Below, piece after piece: positions 1-26,529 of a stretch of DNA of 26,546 nt (within the stretch, counting starts at the first letter, position 1; the number at the start of each line of letters is the position of its first letter). The notes beneath the pieces are model-generated. The model saw only the letters and a program-made list of their open reading frames with translations, was not told the DNA's origin and searched no databases. Location of the stretch: assembly GCA_048213135.1 (NCBI GenBank), contig PS015106.1, positions 89,192 through 115,737 on the forward strand, read 5' to 3'. Source of the DNA: Reclinomonas americana ATCC 50394 (taxonomy: Eukaryota). Both the position numbers and the translations under genes were made by a program.

Positions 1-28
1 CGTGGCTGAGCATGAAGGCGACACGAAC

Positions 29-3000
29 CTGCTCCCGTGCCAATCGAGCCCGTTCTTGAATGGCGGCCACTTCTTCGGCCTGCCGGCGCTCCACAGCCTC
101 CTCGCGCTCCATTAGCTCCTTGAGGGCCCGACGCTCCGCCATGATGCGCTCGCGATGCTCAGCCTCCTACAGAAGCACAACCCCACCAACGCGATGAGTT
201 GACCACAGTAGCGCACTATGAAGAACTCAATAAGTGCACCTCACGCGCACGCCGATCACGCTCCTGTCGCTGCAACATGATGGTGTCCTCGTTGGCCAAA
301 CGCGCCATGGCCTGATCCGCAGGCACGGGGATGGTGGTGCGTCCGAGCCACTGTTGAACGCACTGGCCACCGATCTCCGGCTCCAGGAGTGCCAAGTAGT
401 AACAGAAGCGCTCAACGAGCCGTCGACGTGGTCCGATTTTCGCCAGCACCTCCTCGTACACATTGCGATTGGTGAGTTCTGTGTCTTTGGGGGCGGCAAA
501 GGGGTCGTCGTCCGGCGTTTCCGGTGTCTCGGAGGGTATCTCAAAAAGCTGCACGCGCGACGGAGTGGCAGCTTCCGGTCCGCTCGGCGACTTGCTCCGC
601 TGCTCGTGCTCCAATTGTCTCTCGATCTCGTCGGCCTCCTCCTTGAGCACCGCGAGAAGCTCCTGCCCAAACGTGCCTGCCAAGAGAGTGGCAATCAGTG
701 CACCCAAACACAAGCTGCATACATACTGGGAGGGCATGCACGCACTCGGCTGTCCTTCGGCCAGCAGTGAGCGCCGCACAGTGTCCAGCACACGCTTGGT
801 CGGCTTCTCCATCCGACATTCCAGCATGTTCATCATGGCACGCACAAGCAGCATGGCGTCGTGAAACACGCCCACGCGGTACCCTGCGTGGCGCATCATG
901 ATCATCACTTATTAGCATCGCCTGATCGCAGAAAAAGAAGCACTGTGCTGTCACGCAACCGCACAGCAGCACGCGCTGCAGCATCTTGGAGGCCTTGGAA
1001 GCGGTGGCCGCCGACAGCAGGCGGCGGTCAACGTCGGCAATGATGCGCAGGTACGCAAACACCGGGCTCTGCAGCGATGGCTCACGCAGTGCCGAGTGTG
1101 CATACATGGACACAATGCGCTCTGCAAACGAGTGCAGAATAGATGAATTGATGTGGAAGAGCAAAAAAAGGAAACCACCAAGCCGCCACACCATTGAGTG
1201 TTGCCTGCGTCAGACCGAACGTGTACAAGTCGAATGTCTCCACATCTTGCAGCGTGAGATGCTCGCTGAGTACCCACAGCTGCGAGAGGAGGGTAGTCGA
1301 TTGCCGCATGTCACGCAATACTTCCTCTGTGTACGCAGGTCACAACACGGTGACGACGACGCAAGCGGGCACGTACACACAGCAGCAACAGCGCGCTCGC
1401 ACCTTGTTCAGTGAGCAAGATGAAGCACTTGAGCAGAGCACGAGCAGCGTCGGTCTTCCAGTCCACAAGGTGCAGAATGGTGACCACGGCGTGATGAATC
1501 GAGTCGGTCGAAAGCACTGCGAAGCAAGGTCACAATCTCCACATCACGCACACGCATACATAAACGCATGGCACACCTGAAAGGTCTCCAGCACCAGTCA
1601 GCCGCTGCAAAATGTCGGCCAGCATGATAAACAGCGGCTGATCAACCGAGAACAGCTCGACTTCGCGCAGCGGCACAATTACAGTCTCGAATGGGAGGGA
1701 GCCACTGGAGGAGCCAATCTTCGCTGCCGCATGAACTGATACAGAGTGGTGAGCGTGGGGAGGCGCTACAATGAGCTTGATGCGAGTGCGTTCCGCACCT
1801 GCCAGACATGGATTCTCGGCAGCCTTCATGGCCAGCCAACGGCTAGCATCGCTGGCACACAGTTTGAAGAAGGAGCGACGGAATGTCGACCCCAGTAGCG
1901 TGTCGATACCAAACTCTGTATAGAAGCAGGTTAGTGCACGTGCTGCTGCGACATCGCTCGACATGCACAGGCGACGAAACTGGTCGAAGTCAAATCCCAC
2001 AGACATCGCACGGCGAGACGAACAGCAAGCAAGCTCTCCGAGGCCAACAGCTTCTTCACCAGCTGCAGGTAGCCGGCCTCCGTCAACGGCGCCAACGTAT
2101 GCACTGCGTGGCATGACTGTGAGTCACACTGACAGAGAGAAGTACAACCGAAGCAGCTGACGCGGGCGCACCAGAGTTCTGCAACAGGGTTACGAGTTCC
2201 ACCGACATGAGCACGGCTTGCGGGATGGTGGTCCACGACGGTCGCGTGAGCCAGTCACGTGGACACGGCTCCGGTAGTGGATCGTGCGACCGGAACCCCA
2301 TCGAGGTGGCCTGACCGTCCACCGGTGCTGCAATGACAACAGGGAGTGAATAATCTTGATCCATCTCCGCAGTCAGCCTGGACGGGAAGAGAAGATGACG
2401 AACCGACAGGCAAGTGAGCCGTGTGCACAAATGGAGCCTCCATGACTCCGTCGGCCTGGCCCACAAAGTTCGAGTGATCCTGCGGCGAGAACATGTCCGC
2501 ATCGGCCACGGCCACAAACCAGAAATCCATGCATCCCATCAGTCCCTTCACACTCGTGTCCTCCTCGGGCATCAGACCTGCCGAGCAATTAGAGCTCCAT
2601 TCGCAGAAGAAGAAGAAAGAAAGGACATGCATCACTCACCATAGAGTACACACAGGCGCAGGCAGCGTATGGCAAGGGTCATCGAAGGATGCGACAGACC
2701 GGCATCAAAGTGCGACACAAACGACAGCAGCGAGCGGCTGACACGCGCCAGCAGCCAGCACTCGCGCGATGCTGCGGGATTCTCCTCGTGCAATCCCGCA
2801 TGCACACAGTCGAGCAAGGCGTGGCACATGGTACTCTGCTCACGCAGCGCACCACATACGTACTTGGCGACCACCACCAGATCCTCGGTCACCAGTCCAA
2901 ACTTTTCTGGATCCAAGAAGAGCATCCGACAGATCTCCACCATGACACGCTGCACTTCGGTCACCGGTGACGACACCAGCTTCATCGCGCTCATCCAGTC

Positions 3001-6000
3001 CCTGTACAGATACATTGCTGTGCGCAGATGCACGTCTGCAGCACCGAACACGGTGAGCGGGCAACGAATGGCGAATGAGAGGGTCACAGAATCGCTCACC
3101 CTCGAGACGCCGCTTGTACTCGTACTCGGCGCGCAGCAGGTCGGCCGGTCGAATGTCGTCGCGAGTGAGCAAGTTCACCGACAGTCGCATCTCGTCGCGG
3201 CGCAGTCGCGGATCGAAATCCAGTGCACCTACACAGATAATGAGAGGCTTGCATCCGGCAGTGCAGCACGATCAAGAACAAACCCCACGCGCGGTACTCG
3301 CGCAGCAACCACACGGCAGCCGCGTGAATGTCGCCAACATTGCTTCGTGCAGTGGTGAGGATGCGTCGCGGCATCTCGCGATCACGCAACACGCGAGCTC
3401 GTGTGCTGCCGTATGAGCCGAGAATGCGGATGCCGTGCATGGCAGAGATGAGCATGGCACCGCTCGTGTAGCTGACAACGGTGGCGAGCTCCGAGTACAC
3501 GCCCTCGGTGAGTGCCAGGTGCGCCAGATCTGAGAACGGAAGCGGACGCGAGTGAATTCAACAGTGCACATCGGAGACACACGACGGCAGCTGGCAACAA
3601 CACCTTCGTCGGCCTCCAGGGCGGAGACCACGGCGTAAATGGCGCGTTCCTGCACCGGCCGCGTGCCACTGCTCATCAGATAGAACAGCAGCTGGAAGGC
3701 GCGCTCCTCAAAGAACCATGACAGCTCGCCTGGCGTGCACGACGGGTGAGACAATCGTGTTTGCTGCAATGCAACAAAAAAACACACAAAGGAACCTCGA
3801 TGCATGAGTCCGTGCAAATGCAGAATGACTTGCTTTTGCTTCAGTGGATCTGGCGAGTGCGCACTGCACCACACATCGAGAAAGCTGATGAGTTTGTCAT
3901 CGATTGGCACACTGTCGAGCGCCAGCAAGTCCTCGTCCGCATTCCAGATGCCGCCTGATGCATCAACACATGAGCATCACACGCAACCCTATCAATCAGT
4001 GTGGACGTACGACACACCGCTGGTGATTCCCTGCGAGCCGTCTCCGCCTGGTGTGGCTGTAGTCGGTACAGCGAGGAGTGGATTCGCAGCGCGATCATCA
4101 ACATCGTGGAAGCCGCGCACTTGTTGCACGGCGTAGTAAATCACGTTGTCTTCGGTGACGTATGCCTGCCGATAGGCGGCCACCACCTGCACACTGGCGT
4201 TTCGCACACGCTGAGCGGGGCAGTGTGCCAGGATACTCATGGTGATCAGGCCTCTCTCCTCCGCCAAGGTGTCGGGCACGCCGGCTGCGCGGGACGAGGA
4301 TAAGCAACAGGCGTGGTGAATGCGAAGCCAACGTGGGAGCAACATAGTGCGCACGTTCTTCGGCCAGACATGCAAGCGAGGAGGCTGCACAGGTTACCAC
4401 GCGCTCTTGCGCCCGCGTTTCGGGATTGTCATCTGCGGTGTGCGTGTGTGGACGTTCTCAGCAAGTGCATCACCAACACTGCGTGTTGCATTGCATGTGC
4501 ACGCACCTGCAATCTCGGAGCGCTCCTCGTGTTGTCGCCCAGACTGCGATCCACGAGCCGTACTGGCCTTTGCATGTGACACGCCTGACGATGACGACGA
4601 CGACGAGCCCAACTCGCGTTCGGCCTCCTCCTCAGCAAGCCTCCGCTCCTCTTCCTCCTGCATTTCCAGTTCGTCCTCACGGCCCTTGCGCCTCCGCTGT
4701 CGCAACAATTCCTCCGCATCCGCCTCCGCCTTGGCCGCCGCAGTCGCCGCGGCGATCTCCTGCATGGATGTGGAGCAGTTCGCGGTCAGCTTTTTGCGGC
4801 GAGATTGGCCAGCGTTGCACATACGCAGACGACACACACCTTGTCCTTTGGCCGTTCAATGAGTCCCTCTGCCTCGGCAATCACATTATTGGCGTAGTTG
4901 CGCAGCAGGCGAATGTTGGCCGGCACAAAGCCGAGACTGATGAGTCCTGGTCTCAGCGACTCGGTTTCCGCCATGAATGCAAAACACTGCGCCAGCTCCA
5001 CTTGGAGATGTGGATCGTCGATGTTGGCCCAGTCGAACAAGATGTGCATGGCCGGCGATTCGATGATTGTTCCTCGTGTTTCCTCTGCAGTGGCGCATGT
5101 CAGCAAGCACTACGAAGCACTCGTACATGCCTCTCCACCCCCCACGCACCATTGACATACAATCGCGAAAACACCCATGCCAGGTGGCTGGAGATTTCCG
5201 GGCCGGCCTTCTCACTCAAATGCAAGAGTGAAGTGAGCATGGTGCGGTTGCCGATTAGAGGGCACCCAAAGTCGGTGGCACACGCCGCACGCAGGAAGCG
5301 AATGCCTTGCGGCACAAAGCGCTCCGTGTCCTGGTGTGTCTCCACGATTTCAAGAACTCGTTGCACCACCGCCTTGACCACCAATTTCTCGGCGCATTGA
5401 GCTGGGGAAAAAAAGAGAGTGAGCGAGTTGAAGAAACGGTGACACAACACAAGAATCACGAAACGTAGCTCCGCCATGTTGGACATGGCCAAAATGGCAA
5501 ATTCCCACGCCGGCTGATTGTCAGAGGCCAGCACTTGGGTCAGAATGTGCTCAATGTCGTGTGCCAAGAAATCGTAACGAGAATCCACTACAATGAGGGA
5601 GTGAGAGAGCGGTATGCCAACAAAGAGTTGCAGTCAGGCTGCACGCAACAGTTTTCAGTGATGAACGCAATGGCTGCCGTGGCGTGTCGCTGCAGTGCTC
5701 GAATTCCACTGGCCGCAGCTCTGGTGATGGGACCGACGACACCTGCCACATTCAAAGGCTCGATGCAGCGCGCTGTCACCAACAACAAAGCGTGAGCGCA
5801 CTGATTACAAAGTGCACAATTGCTCCCACTGACACGCAACTCTCCACGGCCAGATTGGAAATGGTGCGCGCGGCCTGCACTTGAATGGAGGAGTGTGAAC
5901 TCTGTTCCACCAGCTGCACGAGACGGCGGCAGAGATTGGTGGCCAGGATTTCGGAGCGGCCGACATCGGTAGCGGCCGCATTCGCAATCACCGACAGCGC

Positions 6001-9000
6001 CATTCGCTTGAGCTCCTCACTGTCGTGCTCCAGCAACAGGCGACTCATCTCCGCCGTGACGCCCATGCCCAACAGTCGCGCCATATTATGCGCATCCACT
6101 GTCAGATTGTAGAGCGTTCCGACCACCTGCACGAAGAAGGAGGAGGGGATGAGCCACACAGCATGCCTGCACAAAGCTGCATTTCCGCCACTCACGTTTC
6201 GCATCAGCGATTCGTTCTCCGAGGGGATGTGGGCGAGAATCCACGGCACGCACTTTTCCTGCACAATGGACTCGCGCAGGTGCTCCTCGGTGGAGAAGTT
6301 GCGCAGTGCCGCAGTGAGAAGCACTTGCAGGTCGAGATCCGAGTGAAATGTCTCGCCCAGCAGCACCAGATTGCGGAATCCGTCCGGAGCGGGCATCGCC
6401 GCACGGCAAGCGGCTGCGGATTCAAGAGCACGAGTCAAGCCGGAGGGGTATGCGACACAAAGAGGAATGTACATGACACTACCATGTGCAGAGAGAACGT
6501 AGAGCACACGAGCGGCCTCCACTCTGGCTGACTTGGCGGTGGAGCGCAAGCTGTTGACGACCATACTCACGCCTCCCCACTCGGCCGCCTCGGCCTTCAC
6601 TTCGTCTGTGCAAATTTACGAGTGAGCAAGCAGCGACAGGCGCACACGGTGGGGCAACGACGAACCAATTTCCAGCGCCAAATTACCGAGCAGAGCACAT
6701 GCGTTTTCTTGAATTACCGGATCACGCACATCGCCCTTCATGACACTGAGCAAGACACCACCAGCGGCACGAACGTAGCTGCACCAGATTCCTGCATTCC
6801 ATGCTCATGAGAAGAAGGGGTGGTAAGAGGGACTGCATGAAAATGAATGTGTCGCGTACCGTCCTTGGTTAAGCGAGCCAGGGTGATGAGCAAATTCTGA
6901 GTGACCAACAAATCCTCCAGCGACGCTGTGACCATCAACTTCTCCAAGCACTCGGGTTGGGCAAGTTGTGTGCGCACAGAATCTGCACGTGTATATATAA
7001 GGACACCAAACTGCACTGCACGTTCACGAACACAAGCTATCGTTCCGAGAAACGCAACCAACTTGCGAAATGCCGGCCAAGCAGCGCAAGGCATTTCCCA
7101 GTGAGCGCACGAGACCCGGATGCCGAGGGTGTAGTTCTTCTTCTCGCAGAATATCGCCTGTTTCCAAGCACGGGTGCTGGAACACCTCGAGAACGACCTC
7201 CACCAAGCCCACTTCGAGCAAACGCGGCCACATGCGTGCTGCGTGGAACCACAGACACGATCAGTAATGCGACAGCAGTGCACGCTCGCTCTAATGCGCA
7301 CGCACGATTCGCTGTCAGTGTGGCAAACGCGGCAAGACCCTCTGCTTTGAGTTCCGCATGTTCCTCACGATGAAGGACACGCACCATGCGCGGCAACACA
7401 TCCGACACGACTGCCGCCGGCACAAGAGTGTCTGCGTAGACACACTGCGTGTGAGCGCAGCGCAGCACGGCACGTGCGCTGCTCACGTGCAAGACGCGCT
7501 CACCATCGGCCACCACCTCCTCGTAGCAGAGGTACGCCTCGAGACGTACTTCGGGATCCTCGGAAAGCACGGTCCGCTCCAACATGCGCAGTCCCTGAAG
7601 CACGTGCACAAATGCACGTCTCTCACGCTCTGCGCGCTTGCCACACGTGAGATCAGTGCCTTTCGAGGTATCGCATTCTCCCAATAATCACGTGCCTGTC
7701 TTGAGCAGGAAACGCACAGCCTGCAGTGCCGTCACACGCATGGTTGGTGGTGCGCGTCGTGCAAGCTCCACAAGCACGTAGCTGACAAATTCCTTGCCGA
7801 GAGCATAGTGCAAGTCATCTGCGGTGACAGTAGTGAGGTGCGAGTGAGCTGCATGGGTCACGCGCAGCTATCGTCACGGCAAAGCGACTGAACTCTCCAT
7901 GCACAAGTTGCGCAGTGTGCTGATTGCGTGTATCTGCACGGCCTTCTCCAGTGTTGATCCGGAGAAGCAGCGGCCGGTGATGGGTCCATACGGGTGCACT
8001 TGTGTGGCCTGTCGAGCCAGATGGACGATGCTTGACAACTCGGTGATGATTGACTTGTCCATGCGCACATGCACTGCGAAGACACACCGAGTGATTGATT
8101 ACATGTCACACGAACATGCAGCAAGATCACAGCCTACCATCCTCGGTGAGCTGCGACACGGCAAACATGGCATGGTGACGAAGTCGCCAGTTCTCGGCTT
8201 TGAGCGACTTGAGCACCAGCGGCAATAATTGATGTTCAATCACTTTTGGTGCCGTTTGCAGAGCTACACGAGAGCAGAGTGAATCACCACGGATGCGACA
8301 AAAAGGAGCATGAAGGAAGCGTGTGCCACTCACCACCACAGTAGCGTACGAGGCGAGCGAGAGTCTTCAACGCTTTGCGCAATCCGTGCGTATGTGTGGT
8401 GCGCATCGTGCGTGACACAAGGAACACCAGGTCCACTTGGTCAAAGGTGAGGCACGCATAGTGCTCTGCCAACGCACTGTGAATGCCAGCAGAATGACAA
8501 ATTAACACCACTCTCGCACCACCACTCACCATTCAATGTGAGCGCATCCAGCAAATAGGCACACGCAGTTTGCATGTCATTGTCGAGTGTCATACACAGC
8601 GCATGAATCGTATCGATGTGCACCTCGACAATGTACTGCAACACGGCTTCGCCTGCAATCTCGACCGAATGAGTAACCACCCACATTCATGAAAAGTGTG
8701 CGCGCGTACGTGCACGCAACTCGTCTTCATGATGGAAGCTAACTCCATCATGCGTTGACACATGTCGTCCACGGAGCCGAGCATGATCTTGCTGAACAAC
8801 TCATCGATGACGGCCTGCCTTCTGATGCGACGCGAGCGAGCACTCTCGTCGTCCTCACTTGCCGCACCTCCAGTGCTTCCGCGACTCACAGGCCGACTGC
8901 CTCCGGCGGGGCTTCCACCACCGCGGTTGGGGATGAGCGTGAGCTGAGGCACCGTCGGTCGCCACATTTCGTCGCCATCCTCGAACTCCACCACCGGCTG

Positions 9001-9950
9001 CTCAGCAAAGCGAGCCGACACTGACCGACTGGGACTCATTCCACCGCCACCACCACCAGCCAGTGCGGAGACGAGCGTTGAGGCACCATCGCTGCGACTG
9101 CTCGCGTCCTCCCATTGCACACGACCGGAGAGCAGTCGCCGTGCGGAACCGGCATTGGCTCCAGTCGATCGTGCCGTCACCGACGCCGTTCCTGCTTCCG
9201 CTGAAGCACCGGCTCCTGCGCCTCTTGCGGAGACCGCATCGGCAGGCACTACACCCGGCACGGCCGTGCGCTGGTACAATCGTTGGCGCTCTCGTTCAAG
9301 AACCTGCAGAAAGAAAGAAAGAGATCACTGAGCAAGCACATCGAATACCACCAAACGTGATTGTATGTGTCAAGCCCGACCTCGTCTTGCACCGCGATGC
9401 GTACGCCTCCCGACGGTCGATTCCGCCACATGCTAACACGCTGCGACTGCAACGGATGCTGCTGCTCCTCCTCCGCCTGCTGCACGGCCAGATACTCGGC
9501 CGTCGGGATCTCATCATCCTCATCATCATCCTCTGCCTCCTCCTCGCCCTCCTCGAGATGCACACCCGTACCATCATCATCCTCTTGTCCATCATCACCG
9601 TCCACCACCATCACCACTCGTCGCTGCCGCCTCGGTCGTGCAGGCTGCACCAGCAAATCACCATCATCGCCATCATCGCCATCATCTCCCGTGGGTGTCT
9701 CCATGGATAACCTCCTTCCCACATAGCGCTGCGCTGGCGACAGAGGCGACAGATCAGCTGCCGGCCACGGCTGCGCACGCTCCTCCGTCGGCACCGAGTC
9801 CACTGTCAAATCATCCTCATCGCCATTATCGTTATCATAGTCGTCGGCGATGGGAACATTGAGTGGACGCGCGCGTGCCAGTGGCGAAGCACTCACGCCG
9901 ACAATGGCTTGCGGTGAGTGAGAGCCTTGTCGATGCACCACCGTCGCCAT
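29..9950 (-). CDS. Giant armadillo (ARM)/HEAT-repeat protein, 38 introns, at least 2461 aa; 3' end lies beyond the left edge of the window
   Basis: ATG at 9950 (MATVVHRQ). One stop-free frame is recovered by joining exons 9381-9950, 8721-9303, 8530-8652, 8334-8465, 8138-8263, 7894-8073, 7696-7818, 7504-7629, 7306-7431, 7059-7238, 6860-6982, 6666-6791, 6483-6605, 6196-6413, 5841-6126, 5650-5772, 5465-5587, 5150-5401, 4840-5084, 4507-4759, 4355-4432, 4018-4284, 3796-3954, 3604-3729, 3284-3529, 3100-3228, 2640-3035, 2404-2577, 2172-2327, 1981-2103, 1799-1915, 1577-1723, 1403-1516, 1192-1326, 960-1121, 746-883, 240-676 and 29-166 (7383 nt). It contains ARM-like ~42-aa units (IQENACALLGNLA, QVQAARTISNLA, LKRMALSVIANAA, VVGTLYNLT), an acidic disordered N-terminus, and E/R-rich coiled coils at ~4600-4750 and <300. 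Confidence 0.8.
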
Positions 9951-10024
9951 CTTCAACGCACGATGCGTCCGATCGATGATTGTATGATGAGTCATGTGTC
10001 ACGCGCGCGCTTTTTGTGTGATCG
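9951..10024. promoter_or_regulatory. Probable bidirectional promoter/5' UTR region between the ARM gene and AMMECR1
   Basis: Only 74 bp separate the divergent ATGs at 9950 (-) and 10025 (+). This is a positional inference; no motif was identified. Confidence 0.45.
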
Positions 10025-11119
10025 ATGAGTGTGCACCACTGCGCCTACGTTTTTGACTGGTGTGTATGTGTGCCACGTGATCTGCACATGTCAATGCTTG
10101 AGTGTTGACTCTCTCTCACTCCTTCTTGTGTGATCAGTTTGCTGTACGAGTTGGGTCCGGTACACCCAACGATCAAGGACCTGGTCGATGTGAGCCCTCC
10201 ACACCCACAGTTCGATGTGAGCATGTGGCCTGCTGCTCCTCCCCCTCCTCCTCTGCTGTCTCAGTCACGAACTGATGTGCGTTGGTGTGTGTGTTTGTGT
10301 GAGGATAGGATCATTTGACCGAATCGCCGCTGTTTGTCACGTTCAAGAAGCGAGCGAGCAGCAAGCGACACCATCGACATCGCCGAGACGACAGTGAAGA
10401 GTGGGAACTGCGGGTTGCGTCCAACTCACGGTCTATTCTTGTCTACACTCTTGCGCGCTCAACACTGTGCGACAGGGATGCATCGGAACCTTCTCTCCGC
10501 TGCCACTGGGCGAAGGACTGCGACAGTACACGGTGCAGAGGTACACACTCGCACAGGTTCAGTTGGAGTTGGAGGTGTGTGTGCTCATGCCATGACGCAG
10601 TGCTTTCCGAGATCGGCGATTCGATCCGATTGAGGCGCACGAGGTCGAGGACCTCGCCGTGAACGTGTCCATTCTCACCGATTTTGAGCCGGCGGCGCAT
10701 GTGTACGACTGGGAGGTGTGTGCGTGTGCGACAAGAGTACGCACGCAATTTCCGAGTTGTCTTTTTCTCACCTGGCGTCTCTTGCTGGTGCAGATTGGTC
10801 GGCATGGCGTGTGGATGGAGTTCAAGCTCGGATCGCGCTCCACCACGGCCACGTACTTGCCGGAGATCGCAGCCGAGCAGGGTTGGGATCACGAGAAGAC
10901 GGTGAGCGTATACATGATGCCCTTTCGTCGAGCTCGTGCTTATGCACGTGTGTGTGTGCACAGATCGAGTCGCTGTTCAGGAAGGGCGGCTTCCGAGACC
11001 GCATCACGCGCGAGGTGCTGGAATCGGCGATTGTGACGCGCTACCAGAGCCAGAAGCGCTCGTTGACATGGGACGAGTACATGCAACTCAAGCGCCAAAG
11101 CATGGCGCCTGCCACATGA
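10025..11119 (+). CDS. AMMECR1: AMMECR1-family protein (7 exons)
   Basis: Exons 10025-10059, 10138-10216, 10309-10413, 10476-10540, 10601-10715, 10794-10901 and 10964-11119 give MSVHHCAYVFDCL...PLFVTF...LRGCIGTF...AFRDRRFDPI...VSILTDFE...DWEIGRHG...ATYLPEIAAEQGW...TRYQS. LRGCIG is the family hallmark. Confidence 0.95.
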
Positions 11120-11299
11120 GAAAATCCCCAGCAAAGAGAGGCGAGAGAGAGAGGGAGAAACGGCTGTAGAACAATTGTGCATCTGTGTAAAGCGAATGTG
11201 TGGCTCGACGGTGGCAACGAATGATCCGCGCATCGTAGTTGAATCTTTGTCCTCTTTGTTTGTTTTTTTTGATCCGCGACGCGTAAGTCACCTCCTCCA

Positions 11300-12799
11300 A
11301 TGACCAAGCGACCACTCCCTCCCATTGCTATTGCCGCCGGCCTCACTGGTTGGGTGGCCGTTGGTGAGTGAGAGTGTGTGTGTGAGAGAGAGAGAGCGCG
11401 CACACGTCATCACATCGCTCACTCGCATGCATGCGCAGCCACTCCGGCACCCTACTCATTCATCGCCATGGGCTTCTTGCTCGGCCTCTTTGTCATGTTT
11501 GTCAACAGCCTCATCTCCTCCACCTCTTCCTCCTCATCATCATCGTCATCATCGACATCAACAGCAGCAACAGGTGCGCGACAGAATCCCGCGACTTATT
11601 TGAATAGAAAAAAGATGCACTGATGCGCTGCTTGTGTTGTTGCATCTCAGCATCGTCACCAACAGCACAAGCAGAGGCCAAGCAGCTGTCGACCGAAGAG
11701 CAGCGTCGTCTGCAGCAAGCGTACGAGCCGAACTTTGATGTGATTGCCGAGGCCTTCCGGCAGGTGCAGCACCGGATCACGCGTTTCTTGGCCGAGGCCA
11801 CGAGCGAGGAGCCGCGCGAGGAGATCTGGGAGTACGAGAAGGGCGAGGGCGGTGGCCGCACTCGTGTGTGGGAGGGCGGCGCCAATCTGGAGAAGGGCGG
11901 CGTCAACTTTTCCGCCATTCGTGGACAGCAGCTGCCCGGATCGGCACTGGCGTCGCGAGTTGCGTCCCTTTCTGTCTCTGTCTCGCACAGTGGTGCTGAC
12001 TGCAGTGGCTTGCAGCTCAACGTTAGCGCGACGACGCCGTTTGGCGCCACGGGCGTCAGCATTGTGATTCATCCGCGCAACCCGTGGGTGCCGACGATTC
12101 ACATGAACATTCGGTACTTTGAGACGGGTCAGAAGTGGTGGTTTGGCGGCGGCATCGACCTCACTCCGTACTGCGTCAAGTCGCGTGCCGACGTGGCCAA
12201 CTTCCACGGCGCGATGCGCGACGTCTGCAACGCCCATGGCATGGACTATGCGGCGCTGAAGAAGACCGCCGACGACTACTTTACGATTACGCATCGCCAG
12301 GAGATGCGTGGCGCAGGTGCGGCGGGGTACTACACACACATGCACCTTCTGTTGCTTTGTGTGTGGCAGTGACTCACTCTCCCCCTCCGTGTTACGTGCA
12401 GGTGGCATCTTTTACGACAATCTGAACACGGATCGCGTCGCCAACTTTGACTTTTGCGTGGCGGTGGGCGACACATTTATCCGCGCCTACCGACCCTTCC
12501 TGGAGGCGTCACGGCTGTCGCTGCAGTACACGCCGCGCCAGCGTGAATGGCAGCTGCTGCGCCGCGGACGCTACGTGGAATTCAACCTGGTGTACGATCG
12601 CGGCACCAAGTTCGGCCTGGAGAGCAACGGCCGCACGGAGAGCATTCTGATGTCGCTGCCGACCGAGGCGCGGTGGTGGTACGGCGGCCAGCTGCCGCAG
12701 AACCTCGCCGCGGGCACACCCGAGTGGAATGAGCGCCACGAGGCCGAGATGCGCGAGGTCTACTTCCAGCCGCACGACTGGGTCGCCGAGCTGAAGTAA
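11300..12799 (+). CDS. CPOX: Oxygen-dependent coproporphyrinogen III oxidase (HemF/CPOX) with a hydrophobic N-terminal extension
   Basis: Exons 11300-11363, 11439-11573, 11651-11958, 12016-12316 and 12402-12799. Family motifs: [75 protein letters not shown]. The two N-terminal exons are less certain than the catalytic part. Confidence 0.95.
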
Positions 12800-12927
12800 C
12801 CTCCATTCGCGCGCACACCCCGCACATCCACAACTTACTATAGTAGACAATGAACAGACGTAAAAGAAAAAAGAACAACAGTTGACTACAATTCTCGGCC
12901 CAAGGAAAAAAAGGTTTAAAGTTCGCA

Positions 12928-14046
12928 TCATCGGAGGAACCGCTGGCACTGCCGGATGCACTGTAGCGATACGGATAAGAAAAGAGTGGCTGATGTGGGT
13001 GGACGAAGAGTGTGGAAGCAACCTTCGTGGCCTCGATCACTAGTGGATGATGCGCGGCATCGTCGCCGAGGATTTTCTGGTGTAAACTAACCGAGCGGTC
13101 AAACAGACGCACGGCTTTGCGGAACTCTCTTCTCGCCTGCACAATGAGTCCTGTGCGAACGCGAGAGAGAGCAGGTGAGCAACAACGAAGCGGGGGGAAT
13201 GTGCAGTGGCGATGAGGCAGACCGATATTATAGACAGCCTTGGCATACTCGAGATGGGAGGTCCCGTAGTGGCGCTTGCGAATCTCCAGCACACGACCCT
13301 GCACGACGCACGACACACTGAGAATAATCGCATGGGAGACAAGGCGCGAACGGCCGTGAGACGAACTTGCAACACGAGTGCCTCCTGCAAAAGCGACAGT
13401 CAGCATCATCGCACAACTGAGAGAACAACAACGGCACGCCACCTCCAGCTCATTGGCATCGCGCTTGATGCTGGCCATGTTCTCCAGCGTGACGGCCGTC
13501 AGCGGACTGCCCTGGCCGAGGATCTTTTCACGGATGCGCACCGACATGGTGTAGTCCTTTAGTGCCTCCTCCGTGTTGCCGAGTTGGTCCATTCTGCATG
13601 CGGCGGCGCGTCAGGAACGATCAGGTCGACAAGCGAATCGAATAGCAACGCAACACGACGCCATGGTTGTGTCTCACGTCGGCCAGGATTAACCGATCGT
13701 GGCCGACCAGATCTGCTCACACGTCTGTCAGCATCTCATCGTCTCACACTGTACTGTAAGCACACGCAACGTTCTCCCAGATCCAAACATCGCTCAAACA
13801 TGCGCAGTGCCTCCTGCAGCTCGCCATTCCCGAGATACAAGTGCCCCACATCTGCAAACACAACATGTAATAAGCACCTCGTGAACGACGTGTCACGAGC
13901 GCAGCACCCAACTGAGGTACACCGACAGCAGCTTCGGGTTCTCCTTGCCATAAATCTCCTCCATGGTATCCAAACACGAGTTGTACATCTCCAACGCCGC
14001 ATCGATCGTGCCACACGAGTGATACGCGTTGCCAAGACCCAGGAAA
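12928..14046 (-). CDS. Tetratricopeptide-repeat protein (kinesin-light-chain/NPHP3-type 42-aa TPRs), 5' part lost in the gap
   Basis: Spliced peptides include LGNAYHSCGTIDAALEMYNSCLDTMEEIYGKENP, ADVRHNHGVVMDQLGNTEEALKDYTMSVRIREKILGQGSPLTAVTLENMA and AKAVYNIGLIVQARREFRKAVRLFDRSVSLHQKILG. The last exon CIRQCQRFLR ends in TGA at 12928-12930. There is an 18-nt exon at 13367-13384. Confidence 0.85.
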
Positions 14047-14086
14047 CTATGACGCACATCAACACATACACAAGGCATGCCAGCAA

Positions 14087-14930: not shown

Positions 14931-16180
14931 TTACTTGAGTTTGGCTGCATTCTTGTCGTGCTCGGGTGTTGGTGAGTGCTGCCGTGTGGTCGACGAGAGC
15001 AGCGGGGTGGTGTCCGAGCTGCCACCCGCTGCGTCGTCGGCGGAGGGTGTCATCGAGGCCAGATGGCCGCGATAGTAGCCCGGCGGGAAGTGTGGAACGT
15101 GATCCGACGCTTGGCGCACAGGGAAGAAGCAGCCGTCACCTGGCAGGTCGGAGTTGGTTCCCGGCCACCACCACCACCACGGGTTCTCGCCCAGCGCTCC
15201 GCGCAGATTGTGCAGGTAGCCGACGTGGTAGGGATTGGCAGTCTGTTGGGGCGAGAGGTGTGAGTCGAGAGACACCCTTGACATACAGAGATGGAGAGAG
15301 TGGGCAGGCACGCAACCAGGTGGTAGCGTTGTCGCAGCTTGGTCCTCCAGCCCTTGTCCATCGACTCGATGGTGGTGATGTTGCGGAAGAGCAGTGAGAA
15401 GTGGTAGCCCCCAAAGCCGCCCAGAGTCAGCGCAAAAATAATGGCGATGAAGAAGGCCAGCACCACATTCACAATCGACAGTGGTTCCAGTGGTTCCGGG
15501 AACGGTTGCTGCGCGGGGGAACGCGAGTGTGAGGACGAGCTGGTGGACTCGCTCAGAGAGAGACACACACAGACAGACATACCCCTGGTGCTGGTGGCGT
15601 AAACACGGCATACTCCAGCGAAATGGCATACAAAAAATCGCGGAACAGCGTCGCCGCAATGTAGGCACCGAGCAGCGCCGAGTACATCAGGAACTGGAAG
15701 AAGAACTTGGTGTTGTAGAAACCGACACAGTTGTTCACCCACGCTGCGTCGTAGAACGAGATCGATGAGAGTGCTGCCCACTGGCGGGCGGCGGCGGCTG
15801 CTGAGAGAAGCACACGCAACGACAGTGGTGATCCATCTTGAGCACACACCGCTCGCACGAGCTGCAGTGATGCGCGCGATCGGGCTTCGGTACAGATCGC
15901 ACCAGTGGTCGCTCCAAATCCCGCCCACTCTCATCCTTGTGCAGCACGATCGGATGGCACTTGGAGCACACACGATGTGCGCCATCAAAACGCCGCTCGA
16001 TTTGCGACATCTGCAGCCGGCCTGGTCAGCCCAACGATCATTCATCATCTGAGCACGTCGACTCACCACCACACGCTCCTGTCCCGTGGACGACGACGAT
16101 GATGAAGACTCCTCCACCACCTTGGCGTTCACCGGTTGCACTGGCGGCGGCGTTCCGTGCGATCCAGCATGCGATGGGCT
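14931..16180 (-). CDS. DHHC-type protein S-acyltransferase (palmitoyltransferase), 5' part lost in the gap
   Basis: RVCSKC...[37 protein letters not shown] (intron 15744-15820), two TM helices, the TTIE motif, a PaCCT-like [16 protein letters not shown], and TAA at 14931. Confidence 0.93.
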
Positions 16181-16237
16181 GCGACAGGCTGAGCAGATCA
16201 TCGACAAAGGCATCGCACAGCATGCATGCATGCAATC

Positions 16238-17223: not shown

Positions 17224-20160
17224 CTATCCGGTCGACGTCCACCGTGTGGAGCTCGGACTTCTTGGTGAGTTGGCGCGGCTGCGCAGCGACGACTCCCACA
17301 TCAGCGTCTGCTGGTTGACTCCGGGTGCCGCCAGATGGCGGTACTCGTGGAACTCGGCAGGGTATCTGCACAACTGGTAAGACTCTCGCGGAGGATGCCT
17401 ACGGCGCATGATCAGAGTCGGGACGCAACGCTTGTGGTGGTGGGTTCATGAACCGCTCCAGCGATCGGTGTCGGGAGGACGACGAGCGCAGCGTGGGGCT
17501 GGCACTACGCAGGCTGCGACGGTTCGGACTCGAGTTGCGCTGTGGTCTGTAAAATACAAGGTTGGTCGCAGTACACAATGAAATGGAAGGCCAGCAGAGC
17601 ACACGACGCAACGACGTCTTACGACCCTGTGCGCCCAACTGACTAAAGTGCAAGCTGCGCGCCAGATCCTCCTGCGATCGCTCCAACGCCTGCAACGCCA
17701 TGGCTCGCCCGTCTGCCTGCTCGCCTTCTTCAGCAAACGCCGCAGCCGCCGCTCCACCGAGAAGATCGCTGCTCCGCTCGTTGGCCGACTGTGGCGGTGG
17801 TACCTCACGCAACAGCTCCGTTTGCAGCGGACTGGTCGGCGACGCCTGCGAGTAGTCCGCTCCGTACAACTGGCGCAGGGCCTGCACGTCCTTTTGCAGC
17901 GACGACGCCAGTTCCCGTGACGATGAACCGCGCGCCTCCTCGCTGCTCGGTTGTGGCGTTGAGATCTTGGTCGCATCAGGTGTGCTCTGCGTCACGCGTC
18001 ACAGAAAACAGATACAAAGTCAGCAAGAGAAACGCATGCAGTCGGAATTCGCAGAATCAGACGCAACAGGTGCCTGGCGACGGCTGGCCGCAGGCGACGA
18101 CGAAGACGACGACGACGGTACGGGTTGATGGAAGACCGCACTTAACCGGTTGGCCACGCTGTAGGGCGAGCTCGTGCTCCGTGCTGGCGGCGTCTGTCGT
18201 GACTATGCATACGAAGAACATGCATGAATACTCGCATATGAAAAAATCTTCGCAGGCGGGGGCACGAGCGCACCGATCGACCCACGCGACGAGACGATGT
18301 CCGCCGAGAGCCGTCTCGCCGTGGTGATGCATCGGCCGATGTGGGCTGGCTGTGGCCGGCCGACACTGGCGCAGAAGCAGACACACCGCGCGGTGCGAAC
18401 TTGCGACGTGGGCTATTGACAAGAGATGAGTGACGACCATTATCATTCAATGCACTCGCCACAAGCACAACTCACCGGAAGCGAGGATTGCTGGAGCCAA
18501 TGAATCGCGCCGATGACAACAAGTACTGATAGGCCTCTTGCAGCAGTTCTGGTGGTACCACGCCACTCTTGGCCACAAAGTCTGTGCGTCGCCGCGAGTG
18601 AGCATCATTCCTCCTCCTTCCCTCTTGCGCTCGTCCTCACCCATCAGATAATCAGCAGCCATCAGCGGGAATCTCACGTGCGGCAACACGGGTGCCATGG
18701 CGGTGGCGAGCGTCGGCACGGCGACCGGGTGCTCACTGCCGCGCGAGGGCGTCGGATCTGCAGCAGTGAATCACGAGAGTGAGTCTCGTTGTCGCGTGTC
18801 GCTGGCGCACGACAGCCGCGCACACCTGCATCACTGCTGCTGCCAATCGAGTGCACCACAATCTCCGGCACATTCGGGTCCTGGTTGTGTGGAACCCGAC
18901 TGCGGCTCCACAGTAGCACAGCCTCAAACACCGCCTCCTGCAACACACAACTCGTCATCGTCAGCGTCACTGGTGGCACGAAGAAGAGACACAAGAGGGA
19001 TGCGGACCTCGGCCGACACATTCAAATCATCCGACGCCAACAGCTCCACCAGCAGCTCCGGCTGCAACTCGGGGAACGTAATCGTCTGCGACATGGGCTC
19101 GAACTGCTGCAGCGCTTCGCGATGGCACATCTCAAACAACAGATCACACTCGGCCGTCGCCGCCGCATTGAACAGCACCGGCAGATTCTCCGCCGTGATC
19201 TGCGTCGTCAGGAACTTGGCAATCTCATCAAACAGCGTGTACAGCGACAGCTCCCGCGCCGCAATCAGAATCTGCATGAGCGCACATGAGAGAGGCAATG
19301 ACTGGAACAGAGCGAGACAACAACAACCGTGTCGCACCTCGCAGGCCGTGATAATGTCTCGCAGATGCACAGTGTCAGTGTACAAGTACCGCAAGACGAT
19401 CTCAAACGTCGCCGGTGAGCACGTGGTATGCGGTGTGATAATGGGCGCTTTGGAGGTCTGCAAAACACACAAGCAAAAAATGCATCAATGAATGAACACA
19501 ACAATGCATTTCTCACAGTGGTTGCATTTGCACGGTACCTCGTAACCGCTTCCAACGGCGGCAATCAGTGAACGCAGATAGGGCGATCGAGCACACAAGA
19601 CAACCTGCAAGAGAGAGTGTGTGTGTGAGTGTGTCAGGACATGACACGCAGACGCACACACAGGCGCACATGCAGATGCATGCGACTGCATCTTGCTCTT
19701 CCTTGCTCATACACAGACACAGGTAGTCACATGGAGAGAGAGAAGCATGCGCGTGTGCGCCAGTGCAAGTGACAACAGTGGCCATGACGACATGCCTCTC
19801 TCTCTCCCTCGCTCTCACGTGCTTCTCTGCCTGCACACACTCTCTCTCACACACACACTCTCTCCCTCAACGCACCTTGTGCGCTGGGAACGATCGATCG
19901 GCGACCACCACAGACAGATCGGCGAGGTCTTCAGAGAGCGCATAGGCGGCCAGGTCCTCTCCCAGTGTGGTTCGTCGAGGCACAGACGATGCCGAGGGTG
20001 GTGTTGCTGATGAGGAAGAGGACGACGAGGGCAAAGAGAAGGCCTGCTGCTGTTGTTGTTGTTGGGGTGATGCATGTGCTGGCGATGCAGCAGACATGCT
20101 GTGTGATGCAGACGAGGAGGAGGTCACCAGTGGCGACGATGACGCTCCTGCTGTGCTCAT
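17224..20160 (-). CDS. BTB/POZ-BACK domain protein with a long Ser/Arg/Pro-rich disordered C-terminal tail (about 11 introns)
   Basis: BTB: LADLSVVVADRSFPAHK|VVLCARSPYLRSL...FEIVLRYLYTD. BACK: FPELQPELLVELLASDDLNVSAE|EAVFEAVLLW...VLPHVRFPLM. The tail splices in frame through introns at donors 18475, ~18272, 18067, 17612 and 17429 to TAG at 17224. The start ATG at 20160 is uncertain (see findings). Confidence 0.85.
19605..19875 (-). repeat. 271-nt intron rich in (GA)n/(GT)n/(CA)n microsatellites
   Basis: GTGCGT...TTGCAG intron interrupting AHK|VVL. It contains tracts such as tctctctctc, acacacacac and gtgtgtgtgagtgtgt. Confidence 0.8.
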
Positions 20161-20202
20161 TCCACTGCTGTATATGAGTGTGGGAGGCAGGACGCATGCG
20201 AT

Positions 20203-21488: not shown

Positions 21489-23768
21489 ATGGCGAGCCAA
21501 GGCATCACAGAGCACTCCAACTCACTCAGCGCCAACATTGACTTGTGCAGCTCGCCACTGGTTCGCGAGACAGACGCATGCATTTTCCTCACGTTGCATC
21601 TCACACTCTCACAGGAGTTNNNNNNNNNNNNNNNNNNNNNNNNNNNNNNNNNNNNNNNNNNNNNNNNNNNNNNNNNNNNNNNNNNNNNNNNNNNNNNNNN
21701 NNNNNNNNNNNNNNNNNNNNNNNNNNNNNNNNNNNNNNNNNNNNNNNNNNNNNNNNNNNNNNNNNNNNNNNNNNNNNNNNNNNNNNNNNNNNNNNNNNNN
21801 NNNNNNNNNNNNNNNNNNNNNNNNNNNNNNNNNNNNNNNNNNNNNNNNNNNNNNNNNNNNNNNNNNNNNNNNNNNNNNNNNNNNNNNNNNNNNNNNNNNN
21901 NNNNNNNNTCTACCTTACCATTTGCGAATGGCAGGGCTGCTCGGTGCTCCTCGGCTTCAATCCGGTGGAGCTGTCGCGCAATGCGCCGATTGAGAAGTGG
22001 GATCGGTGCGTGTTTTGTGCTTGTCCTCTCTCCTCCGTCCTCGCCACTGACTTGATGGCGAGCAGCACCTTCCGTGATGTGGCGGTGGCATTCAATGCAC
22101 GCGCCGACGACCGGCATATTATGCTGACGCCGGTGGTCGGGCCCGAGGTAGGCCTGATTGATGGACATGCAGCAAAGCTGCACTCTTCTCATCACTATCA
22201 CGCTGCAGGGCATCACGGGCTCGACGAGAATGAAGGGCGGCTCCGGCACGAAACTGATTCTCGATGCAGCGTTTGGCGCTGCTCTGCAGACCGCACTGGC
22301 GGCGCCAGAAGACGGTGAGCAGTCACTCGCATCCGTGCTTCCTGATTTCTCCGACTGTGTCCCTCACTTCGCGCCGGCACTCGCAGTCGACGCGTCCATT
22401 CGCTCGTGGGTCGAGCGCATCTTGGACAGCACCGAGGCGGCGGTGGAGCGTCTCTACACCGAGTATGCCACCGATCTGGCGGCTGTCGTGCAGTTGGCAG
22501 CCAACTCGCTGGCACAGGGGGGCAGTGTGACGTACTTGGGTCAGGGCAGTTGCGTCTGCAGCAAGGAGGAATGTGCGGAGCTAACGACTCACATGCTTCT
22601 CTGCTGCAGATTTCGGTCTCCTCGGCTTTGTTGATGCCTCGGAGTGTCCGCCCACCTACGGCGCCGCATTCACCGACATTCGTGGATTCCTTCGCTATGG
22701 GTGGGATGAGATGCGCAACCAAGAGGTTCGCCTGATGTGCACCAGTCAGTTTGTGCTGCACCACCGCTCACTGACCATGGCGAACAGGGAAACCTGAGTG
22801 GCGTGGGTGCGCCGTACGAGATCTCACATGCAGACTTTTTCAGCAAGGTCGCGCCGCACCTGTCGTCGAAGGACCTGGTCGTCTTTTTGATGCAGACCAC
22901 AGAGGAGGTGGAGTACTACGCCGAGGTACGCCAGCGCATTGAGGCGGCTGTCGAGACGGCCGAACGACCTCGCATGGCGGCTCTGTGTGTGTACGACGCC
23001 GAGGTCGGTTTACGCCACGATAGTTGCTGCTTTCGTTGGTGACCGTCCCTCACGTATTCTGCAGGGACCACGAGTGCACATGGTCGATGTCGATGCGTGC
23101 ATCTCGGTGCCGGTGGCCTCCTCCGTCAAGACTGCTGCCGGTCGGTTCACTCCGGAGGCTGAGCTCTCGCTGAAACTGAGTCTGAATGCCATCACCACCG
23201 GTGCGTCTATCTTTTTGGTGGCTCAGGTTTATTGTCGATCCGTGAACTCACCCAGAGGGGTATCGTCATGGCTCACGATGTAGGTGCCCATGTGATGAAG
23301 GGCCTGGTGTTCGGCAATCGCATGATCAACGTCAAAGTCAGCAACAACAAGCTGTACCACCGCGCCATTTCCATCATTGCCACGGTATGCCGCGTTCCTC
23401 TGCTCTGGATCATCACGGAGATACTCATCCATTTCCTGTGCAGATTGCCAAGGTGTCAACCGAGGAAGCCACTCGTGCCTTGCATCGTTCGATTTACGAG
23501 GACATTGATCCGGAGCGCGACGTGTCCGTGTCGGAGCGCATCAGCGTGGCCGTGGAGAAGGAAAAGGTGAATGCAATGTGCTTATTGTGGGAGGTGAAGA
23601 GAGCGAAAGTCTGACTTTGCTGTTCTTCGTGTACAGGTCGTCCCCGTGGCGTTGCTGTTGGCGTTGCGTGGACGTGAGATCACGGCCAAGGACGCCATTC
23701 GCGCGCTGGCGGAGGAGCCTGTGGTGCGAGTGTGCATGCAAAAGTGGACCGAGTCCAAGGGTTCATGA
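21489..23768 (+). CDS. GCKR: Glucokinase regulatory protein-like / MurQ-related double-SIS-domain protein (interrupted by a gap)
   Basis: ITEHSNSLSANID; VLLGFNPVELSRNAPIEKWD; PVVGPE|GITGSTRMKGGSGTKLIL; GFVDASECPPTYGAAFTDIRGF; ELSLKLSLNAITT|GAHVMKGLVFGNRMINVKVSNNKLYHRA; EKVVPVALL; TGA at 23766-23768. The motif order matches vertebrate GKRP as I recall it; orthology is not tested. Confidence 0.85.
21620..21908. other. Assembly gap (289 N)
   Basis: Run of N inside the GCKR-like gene. Confidence 1.
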
Positions 23769-23797
23769 GCAGAGTACATTCAGATTTGATTTACGGT

Positions 23798-23825: not shown

Positions 23826-26529
23826 CTAGCAAGTGCACTGGCTGAGTGGCACATTGAGCGGAGGCGTGTGACCGCAGCACGGAACGTAGTACGGATCTGT
23901 GGATCGAGAGTGTGAGTACGCAAGAGAAATGCCGAAACGATGGTCCACATCCCTGACCTTGCGGGTCGAGCTGCGGCTGGCCCTTGACAATGGTGGCCTG
24001 GTGAGCAGCCACGGCAGCTTTGATTTGCGCCATGATGTCGGGGTACTGCGACACGTCCAGCGGGTACGCCTCGCTCGGGTCGTGCTGTGCGGGACATGTC
24101 ACACTCCGATAAGAACCACGGTGCGCTGTGTGTGCAAACCTCAATGTTGTAGAGGAGAGGCGGGTCGTGCTTCTGCGGCGCATCCAGCGTGAACCCGTCG
24201 CGCGTGAAATAGTGCGCCTTCCACGGACCCACACGAGCAGCGTACAGGGTGTGCTCGCGCCAGTAGAAGAACTGATTGCTGACACCCTGCGCGAATGGTA
24301 AGAGAGCACCGTCAGTGCATGCAGAGCGTGCGGGAGTAATATGTGGCAAACGCAACTGGTCCATTGTGGAAGAGAATGTTGGAGAGGCTGTGGCCGTCGT
24401 AAACGCGGTCGGAGGGCGGTTTGGCACCTGGGCAACGGGAATGAGTGGGGAGCACAATTGTGGGGTGAGAAGTGGAGCGCTTGCTGCAGCGCACCAGCCA
24501 GCTCAGCAATCGTGACAAAGAGGTCCATGGTAGACGCCTGTGGACACATGCATGAGTAAGTATTTGCTCCCTGTGAACAAGCTCGTGCTGGCTTCATGCG
24601 AACCACTTCCATCGACAAAGTCATGGGTGCGATGCGGCCAGGCCAGCGCGCGATTGCAGGCTGTAGTAATATGAGTCAAAACGAGTGGACAGCGAGGCAC
24701 CAGACGCTACCGCGCAACTTCACGCATGCCACCCTCCCACGTGGAACCCTGCGAGTGTGACTGCGTTGGCGACGGCACGAGAAACAAGTGTGAATTGAGA
24801 CGTACCTTGCCGCCGCGGAAGAGGCCGCCGCTGCCGCCTTTTACTTCCTACGAGAGGAGTGTGTGAGGGTGCATGAGTGAGTGAACAAGCAGTGGGGTAT
24901 CGATGCAACAGCATCTGCAGCATGACGAGAGAGACCTGGTTGATCCACGGTCCGTTGTCTAGCAGCAAACACCAGTGAGATAAAAGTGAACAATACAGCG
25001 ACCCAGGGGAGACCATGCACCTGACGTGAAGAACACAAACGTGTTGTCGTCGAGGCCAAGACTCTTCAGGCGCTGCATGATCATGCCTGCACCTCCCACA
25101 TGAGATGCCCAGCCCATAGTACCAACAAAATGAAGGCACGTACCAATCGAGTTGTCCATCTCCTCCATGGCGTCGCCAAAGAGACCACTGCATGACGTAG
25201 CAAAAGATCAGCAAGCAGGGTGATACAGCCACTGAGGGAAAAAGTACACAAACAGACCGGCGCGACACATTCTTGAATTGATCACTGGCAAACAGATCCA
25301 CATGCACCTCTGTCGCTCACATGTCAGCGAGCGGAGTAGAATTAGAGGCAGAAAACATCGCTTACCGTCGTACGCCATGTACAAGAAGAACGGCTTGTTC
25401 TGGTTGTGCGAGATGAACTCAAAGGCACGAGCATTGTATCTATGACAGAATGGTCGTGATGACAAACATGCGAGCGGAAAAGCAGCGATGTCGAGGGTGA
25501 CGCTTTACCGTGGAGTCAGCGTGTCGAGGTCCACCGGCTACACCGAGAGGAGTGAGTACGAGAGAGGACAAGAGATAGCCGGAGTGGCAGCGTCACCTGC
25601 TGGATGATGGTGTTGTTCTCCATCTGCACGCGCAATCCAGAACTTGAGTGAATGAGCGTGAATGCACACGATAAGCAGAGCAACTCACCAGCGGAACACC
25701 CTGTGTGGAGTGCAACATGCAGCAAGTGAGTGAGTCAGTGAAAGCAAGGGAGGCGCATGAATTGCAAACACGCACAGGCCCTGTTTGCAGAGAAATGGAG
25801 TCAGTGAGAGGGGAGAGAGAACAGCTCGGGAACACAACCAACGCACAAATGTTCTGCCACTCCTGCAAGCACGACCAACAAACAAGCTCGTGAGTGCCAT
25901 AATTGCGGCAGCAAATGGCTGAGCAGGGGCACGCAACGTGGCAGGGGTACGGCGGGCATCCTTCGTCCTGTGAGTATGGCCTGCGCACGGAAAAAATGTA
26001 AATCGCTCCTCCACTCCATGCGTGCATTCCACGGACGCAACAGGCCCTGCACGACAGCGTGTGAGACAATGTACGTATCACACGCGATTCGCGGCACGCA
26101 CGTAAAAGTAGTCGAAACCATGGTCCGTGGGGCGGAAACCGGGGAGATGTCTTCATTGAGAGTGGAGTGAGAAGTTATCGGCTCACTGCACCGCTTTGCA
26201 CAAAACGCACCCCAGATGCCACTTGCCGATCAGACTGTATGGATGTACACCGAGGCGTGTCAGCGGAGAAACAAGCTCTGAACAGCGAGGCACGAAGAAA
26301 CAAACCCCGTCTGATAACCCGACGACTTGAGCAGCGACGCAATGGTGACCTCCGAGGGCGGCAACCCGCCCGTCGACGACGGGTAGAACACACGGAACAC
26401 ATTGTCGGCAGGCCAGTCATCCGCCGTGTACACACCGTTGCGCTACCGGGGGGAGAGCGTGAGCGAGCAGTCACGCGAAGAGAAGCCACAAGAAAAACGC
26501 AACAATCGGCAGTCGGCCCGTCATCAGTG
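23826..26529 (-). CDS. Arylsulfatase (formylglycine-dependent sulfatase, ARSA/ARSG/GALNS-like), about 21 introns; 5' end beyond the right edge of the window
   Basis: Spliced protein: ALMTGRLPI|RNGVY...GLPPSEVTIASLLKSSGYQTG|LIGKWHLG|H...HGFDYFY|GL|PYS...KPFFLYMAY...EMDNSIG...NTFVFFTS|DNGPW...GGK|GSTWEGGMRE|PAIARWPG...STMDLFVT...DPSE...PCCG...CTC-TAG (23826). The CxPxR motif lies outside the window. Confidence 0.95.

Follow-up and report, generated by a model that had tools for sequence, protein, structure and literature searches.

Internal exons of ≤15 nt occur in about 9% of the gene models (1,165) of Coprinopsis cinerea and exons of ≤3 nt in 89 of its genes; most of these microexons break the reading frame if omitted, and they are enriched in some enzyme families (P450s), as stated in the accessible part of the survey (PMC12230235). 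For plants, the available sections of another source describe small microexons of which about half are not multiples of three, which are mostly included and are often missed by annotation; adjacent exons of 5 and 12 nt were validated in rice Os08t0562700, most coding microexons are highly included, and sequential removal of the two flanking introns has been proposed (PMC8831610). In the excerpts at hand, animal neuronal microexons are characterised by regulation, by long flanking introns and, in most cases, by a length divisible by three (PMC8831610, PMC8378409); short introns are said to be handled by intron definition by default, and exons below the size that exon definition can serve to depend on it (PMC8378409). 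A search of the openly accessible literature found neither a paper with both 'sulfatase' and 'microexon' nor a survey of microexons in free-living protists.

The window analysed here, the whole stretch of 26,546 nucleotides from Reclinomonas americana ATCC 50394, carries a cluster of six small predicted exons in an arylsulfatase gene. As far as the accessible text on Coprinopsis cinerea allows the comparison, the cluster resembles that system in placing microexons in an ordinary metabolic gene of an intron-rich genome, and differs in that the exons here are predicted rather than proven by long reads, the gene has 19 introns per kb, and a shifted GTTGCG donor lies beside one 5-nt exon. Adjacent 5- and 12-nt exons are shared with rice Os08t0562700 as described in the available sections; plant clusters are reported there as conserved across species. 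Among 28 metagenome loci scanned here, none had the exon-by-exon pattern of an intron-bearing relative in which such conservation could be looked for. The likeness to animal neuronal microexons, as characterised in those excerpts, is one of size class only (≤27 nt): three of the six exons here shift the frame, the introns measure 55–75 nt, the donors are strong and the encoded residues are core-conserved.

The gene lies on the minus strand, extends past the window end and runs down to position 23826. Its window part (23826..26529) comprises 24 exons and 23 introns of 55–88 nt (mean 64.5 nt), all GT-AG, and splicing the six small and 18 other exons gives a single open frame of 405 codons with a terminal stop. 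Five further 5' exons, read from a second genomic copy of the region (L004), supply a signal-peptide-like start, a DD pair and CSPSR. In full, the model encodes 486 residues in 1461 coding bases, divided into 29 exons by 28 introns; one of these introns is assumed, in a stretch that was not read and over which the protein runs on without a break relative to its homologues. S1 formylglycine-dependent sulfatases are marked by the catalytic motif CxPxR, an N-terminal DD, GKWH and SDNG; of these, the second copy shows FADD and CSPSR, and the window GKWHLG and SDNG. The window protein scores 449 bits (E 7e-139) over its whole length against a profile of 122 homologues, which was built on 120 relatives of the bacterial bait P0002 and whose 120 listed members carry PF00884 and PF14707, and it is 52.6% identical to P0165 over 407 columns. 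By its motifs and whole-length similarity, the gene is a predicted S1 formylglycine-dependent sulfatase of the arylsulfatase A/GALNS-like kind. Single exons were poor queries: a word-based search with a 47-aa exon gave no match, and searches of Pfam and PDB mostly gave none, one of four exons matching PF00884 weakly. No paralogue was found in the organism's own assembly by searches with PF00884 and P0002, which returned the two copies of the gene and intron-less, bacterial-looking matches. The intron-less matches lie on very long or short high-GC contigs (G000:C1, C2, C4384 and others; L006–L017), a distribution that suggests co-assembled bacteria.

A search with one 45-residue exon yielded 50 proteins, from which 15 spanning the region were chosen (short ones, the near-duplicate P0143 and the bacterial-type P0152 were left out); two failed the anchor pattern, and 13 of the 50 were aligned as close homologues. 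In a quick tree of 36 rows, the window protein groups with proteins of Rigifila and a sponge (SH-aLRT 100), a group that shares a [HQ][DE]EG motif and [WF]P.[VT]PL. Recent bacterial transfer followed by intron gain was rejected as an origin of the gene, the tree placing the protein with these two named eukaryote proteins and apart from six named bacterial ones. The Rigifila homologue P0173 matches human GALNS (PDB 4fdi) at 6e-72 and arylsulfatase A (1auk) at 1.5e-63, and the bait P0002 matches arylsulfatase A at 1e-100 in an alignment that pairs the GxPYS and PL..N....P stretches; the human enzymes are absent from the tree, and the relation to them is given here as family likeness.

A sequence-only reading of the window had proposed the six small exons without giving their strand. 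All six were recovered at the proposed positions on the minus strand, each with canonical splice sites on both sides (CAG or TAG before it, GT after it); three are ≤15 nt (5, 5 and 12 nt). Its range of 59–78 nt for the separating introns did not hold, the eight introns of the cluster measuring 55, 61, 75, 66, 75, 65, 59 and 69 nt. In the direction of transcription, the cluster begins downstream of a 49-nt exon (26102..26150) that ends in the GFD-aromatic run upstream of GxPYS, as supported by frame and homologue profiles. The first 5-nt exon, GGCCT (26042..26046; acceptor CAG), encodes the Gly and two Leu bases of GxPYS, and this Gly is present in 13/13 close homologues and 122/122 bacterial-type homologues. 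Its donor is GTTGCG, the usual GTGCG shifted one base into the intron, which is also the commonest donor of the region (5 of 23 in the sulfatase, 14 of 89 in roughly parsed neighbours). Between this exon and the 16-nt exon lies a 43-nt exon (25938..25980), missing from the earlier list, which on frame and homologues encodes the remainder of GxPYS and the start of a Pro/Cys loop. The 16-nt exon (25847..25862) falls in the variable loop and is placed by homologue profile and splice signals; the Rigifila transcript-derived protein P0127 has WQNI here, reading WQNIFP and then PVPL at the cluster position, and the sponge protein reads WPAVPL. The first three residues of the exon stand opposite gaps in 9–10 of the 13 close homologues.

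Downstream of it, the second GGCCT exon (25776..25780; acceptor CAG, donor GTGCGT) provides two Trp bases and the Pro of [WF]P, whose aromatic is retained in 13/13 close homologues (W in 5, F in 8) and whose Pro in 12/13. The 12-nt exon (25689..25700) encodes the Pro of VPL, present in 13/13, and contributes the residue that opens a predicted beta-hairpin; the 27-nt exon (25597..25623) continues this hairpin up to the Q of QP (13/13); and the 29-nt exon (25509..25537) contributes a Pro and a Thr, each in 13/13, and leads into a predicted helix. G97, P132, P143 and T150 (P0173 numbering, our own count) are invariant in an alignment of 55 sequences. In an AlphaFold model of P0173, which represents the Rigifila homologue and not the window protein (mean pLDDT 81.8), G97 lies in a strand, the hairpin (strands 133–135 and 138–141, pLDDT 91) is made up of residues that correspond to the 12- and 27-nt exons, and residues 101–130 are a low-confidence loop (pLDDT about 50–60). 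Loop length varies widely in the family, some bacterial members (L043, L049) being nearly without it. The proposal that the small exons fall in the variable region after GxPYS is thus borne out for the 16-nt exon only; the residues encoded by the 5-, 5-, 12- and 27-nt exons are kept in 12–13 of the 13 close homologues.

Stop-free GT/GC-AG parses between flanking exons were enumerated exhaustively, segment by segment. Only one of 168 yields the GFD..GxPYS motif, and it uses the first GGCCT, as had been claimed; [WF]P.VPL appears in 222 of 4771 parses, and all 222 use the second GGCCT, in agreement with its proposed role in supplying W-P. Splice signals without homology rank the proposed parse first in each of three segments (1/40, 1/365 and 1/372). 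The acceptor and length terms of this score were trained on the 19 introns outside the cluster, and the ranking is partly circular because the donor score was hand-made after all introns had been seen. Donors reach the top score (4/4) at 8 of 8 cluster introns, at 12 of 19 outside the cluster and at 24 of 197 GT sites in the region. With the close-homologue profile the corresponding ranks are 1/40, 8/365 and 1/372. The exact parse is only eighth of 365 in the middle segment because homology does not fix the start of the 16-nt exon, where it ranks 4/160 and 8/365; the top 20 of the 365 parses all retain the second GGCCT and vary in that start. With the bacterial-homologue profile, too, the parse comes first where the first GGCCT and the 12-, 27- and 29-nt exons are concerned; in the segment of the 16- and second 5-nt exons it ranks only 71/160.

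The start of the 16-nt exon is the least certain boundary because in-frame alternative acceptors lie 3 nt (GAG) and 9 nt (CAG) inside it, which could trim one or three loop residues. The main parse might accordingly differ slightly, with this exon shortened to 13 or 7 nt, forms that score 123.6 and 125.3 bits in the homologue profile against 123.2 for the 16-nt form, or with the second GGCCT exon extended by 11 nt, which ranks second by splice signals. We consider such a variant quite improbable: the 16-nt form tops the splice-signal score (6.2 versus 4.5–4.7), the 7-nt form would lose the W-Q that the Rigifila protein retains, and the 11-nt form reaches 119.1 bits at best. Leaving out small exons destroys the frame or a conserved motif; loss of the first or the second 5-nt exon cuts the frame short at 128 codons, loss of the 16-nt exon at 99. 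Automated annotation could miss these exons, as the earlier reading expected, and the intact frame needs each of the two 5-nt exons. At the level of genomic sequence, the motif-restoring parses, splice signals, homology and second copy confirm the small predicted exons as real.

The second copy of the region lies on another contig of the 108 Mb assembly and is 94.5% identical (G000:C17, L004/L005, versus G000:C98). Most simply, it would be the other allele, the two contigs representing a diploid with strong heterozygosity. The copies show 22 exonic differences (1.8%), all of them silent. Introns differ at 132 of 1484 bases (9%) versus 1 of 94 cluster exon bases (P=0.002), the latter being a silent difference in the 27-nt exon. 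No AG or GT splice site is changed. The first GGCCT exon has the same sequence in the second copy, and both 5-nt exons with their AG and GT are unchanged, which alone is weak (P=0.19). In this two-copy comparison the exons show the mark of purifying selection.

As had been noticed, the reading frame differs between the two GGCCT exons, with phases 0 to 2 for the first and 1 to 0 for the second. A shared origin of the two, or a special splicing element, might be sought in their identity, since two random 5-mers of the sulfatase reading frame match with P=0.0014, or 0.005 if both begin with G. Given Gly-Leu and Trp-Pro, the phases and the codon use of the gene, this rises to P=0.07. Homologues that lack introns conserve the encoded residues independently. 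The introns on either side of the two exons show no relationship, their similarity ranking among the lowest 15% of all pairs, and the assembly has no enrichment of CAG-GGCCT-GTGCG (12 occurrences versus 19 and 14 for two control pentamers). A splice from one GGCCT that bypasses the other would take out 64 nt and put the sequence out of frame, so that the identity gives no useful product. Common ancestry or a dedicated element is hardly credible on these grounds, and the identical pentamers look like a coincidence of Gly-Leu and Trp-Pro codons.

With 28 introns in 1461 bases (19.2 per kb), the sulfatase gene stands out with roughly three times the intron density of its seven neighbours, which have 89 introns (6.7 per kb, range 4.5–10.2) in a rough self-trained parse whose models are unverified and in some cases truncated by gaps; genes also differ in density for ordinary reasons. 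The 28 introns compare with 9.8 expected from the neighbours (Poisson P=1.5e-6; 0.0016 versus the densest neighbour). From motifs in this rough parse, we tentatively take these neighbours to be a long ARM-repeat protein (1-9960, minus strand), an AMMECR1-family gene (about 10130-11120, plus), coproporphyrinogen oxidase (11300-12800, plus), a TPR gene (12900-14080, minus), a DHHC palmitoyltransferase (14960-16200, minus), a BTB/BACK gene (17240-20200, minus) and a sugar-phosphate etherase-like gene (21910-23775, plus). Of the 82 internal exons that it gives for the neighbours, 4 measure ≤15 nt, and it suggests further small exons of 3, 6, 12 and 12 nt (predicted).

Placing 28 introns at random in the coding sequence yields 2.5 exons of ≤5 nt where 2 are seen (P(2 or more)=0.74) and 11.1 of ≤27 nt where 10 are seen; the densest eight introns fall within 137 nt with P=0.14, and exon sizes are not distinguishable from exponential (KS P=0.11). 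Intron density is thus uniformly high in the gene, and the cluster, its densest part, is unremarkable at that density. Exons of ≤15 nt are fewer than expected (3 versus 6.8, P=0.04), which points, if to anything, to a mild avoidance of small exons. The very high intron density of the gene predicts exons of such size, and their kind is already known from fungi and plants. An origin by intron duplication or mobile introns inside the gene was rejected, as only 10–14-nt matches were found among the 23 introns. Genome-wide, AG-N5-GT showed no excess in a 2x2 design (272, 485, 122 and 199 matches, odds ratio 0.92), a test that is not specific.

The small exons are likely, at roughly 80%, constitutive left-overs between closely spaced introns, each intron probably being recognised alone by intron definition. 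The small exons mostly encode conserved residues and are therefore likely always spliced in, not swapped to tune the enzyme. The spliceosome would pair each strong donor with the next acceptor 55–75 nt away; recognition of each intron across itself would make exon size hardly matter, and removal of neighbouring introns one after another would leave one main mRNA for a predicted 486-aa sulfatase, secreted or lysosomal. Under intron definition, a splice-site mutation leads to intron retention, not exon skipping. The 23 introns are short and tightly sized (55–88 nt), and, as intron definition would allow, exon sizes follow no evident lower limit apart from a mild deficit at ≤15 nt. Intron definition had been proposed from exon size; the 55–88-nt introns, together with the accessible part of the source on short introns (PMC8378409), make it the likely route.

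The lengths of the 12- and 27-nt exons are divisible by three, and both exons have phase-0 flanks; singly, the exons of 5, 16, 5 and 29 nt do not preserve the frame, and the 16- and 5-nt exons do so only as a pair. The sequence-only reading had suggested that skipping the 12-nt exon, the 27-nt exon or the 16+5 pair could tune substrate specificity. The frame is indeed kept in each case, and the tuning is unsupported: the homologue-profile score falls from 123.2 to 105.7 without the 12-nt exon, 87.5 without the 27-nt exon and 109.6 without the pair (17.5, 35.7 and 13.6 bits lost), and the excisions required would be 152, 151 and 237 nt, where the longest intron seen is 88 nt. Regulated microexons might be expected as dispensable surface inserts; the 12- and 27-nt exons instead hold invariant residues, P132 among them, and the hairpin strands predicted in the homologue model. 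That either is skipped to adjust specificity is very improbable, more so than a slightly different main parse.

The sole opening for regulated variation would be the loop around the 16-nt exon. The loop might act as a regulated cassette: if the 16+5 pair were skipped, an inner acceptor of the 16-nt exon used or the three introns around it retained in frame, isoforms with different loop lengths and perhaps different substrates would result. The pair is frame-neutral, two in-frame inner acceptors are present, loop length varies widely in the family with low confidence in the homologue model, and the three introns in 25701-25937 (minus strand; 75, 66 and 75 nt) are stop-free multiples of three in the window copy. 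Skipping the pair, however, loses the conserved [WF]P besides the long excision, and the cluster donors are all strong. Three such stop-free introns in a row have a probability of P=0.20. In the second copy the third measures 71 nt and would shift the frame; if the first two were retained, the copies would differ there by 3 and 2 amino acids, where the true exons have no such difference. A retention cassette was rejected as the main reading on this account, its pattern being expected at P=0.20, broken in the second copy and free of coding constraint. Regulated isoforms of the loop are thus unlikely, although less so than the other alternatives weighed here. Marginally less likely again is an intron hot spot that cut the variable loop into a splicing cassette, such that inner acceptors, 16+5 skipping and in-frame retention would produce a set of loop lengths from one gene. 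If true, the cassette would be a protist counterpart of regulated microexons, diversifying a sulfatase.

Constitutive splicing of the small exons, the preferred reading, implies no new mechanism unless regulated loop isoforms exist. For annotation, missing either 5-nt exon makes an intact 486-aa sulfatase look like a pseudogene. The locus offers a clean, homology-anchored test of how the spliceosome copes when 137 coding bases hold eight introns and one of the 5-nt exons precedes a shifted GTTGCG donor, and adds one more well-supported case for the view that there is almost no lower limit to exon size in the Reclinomonas americana genome.
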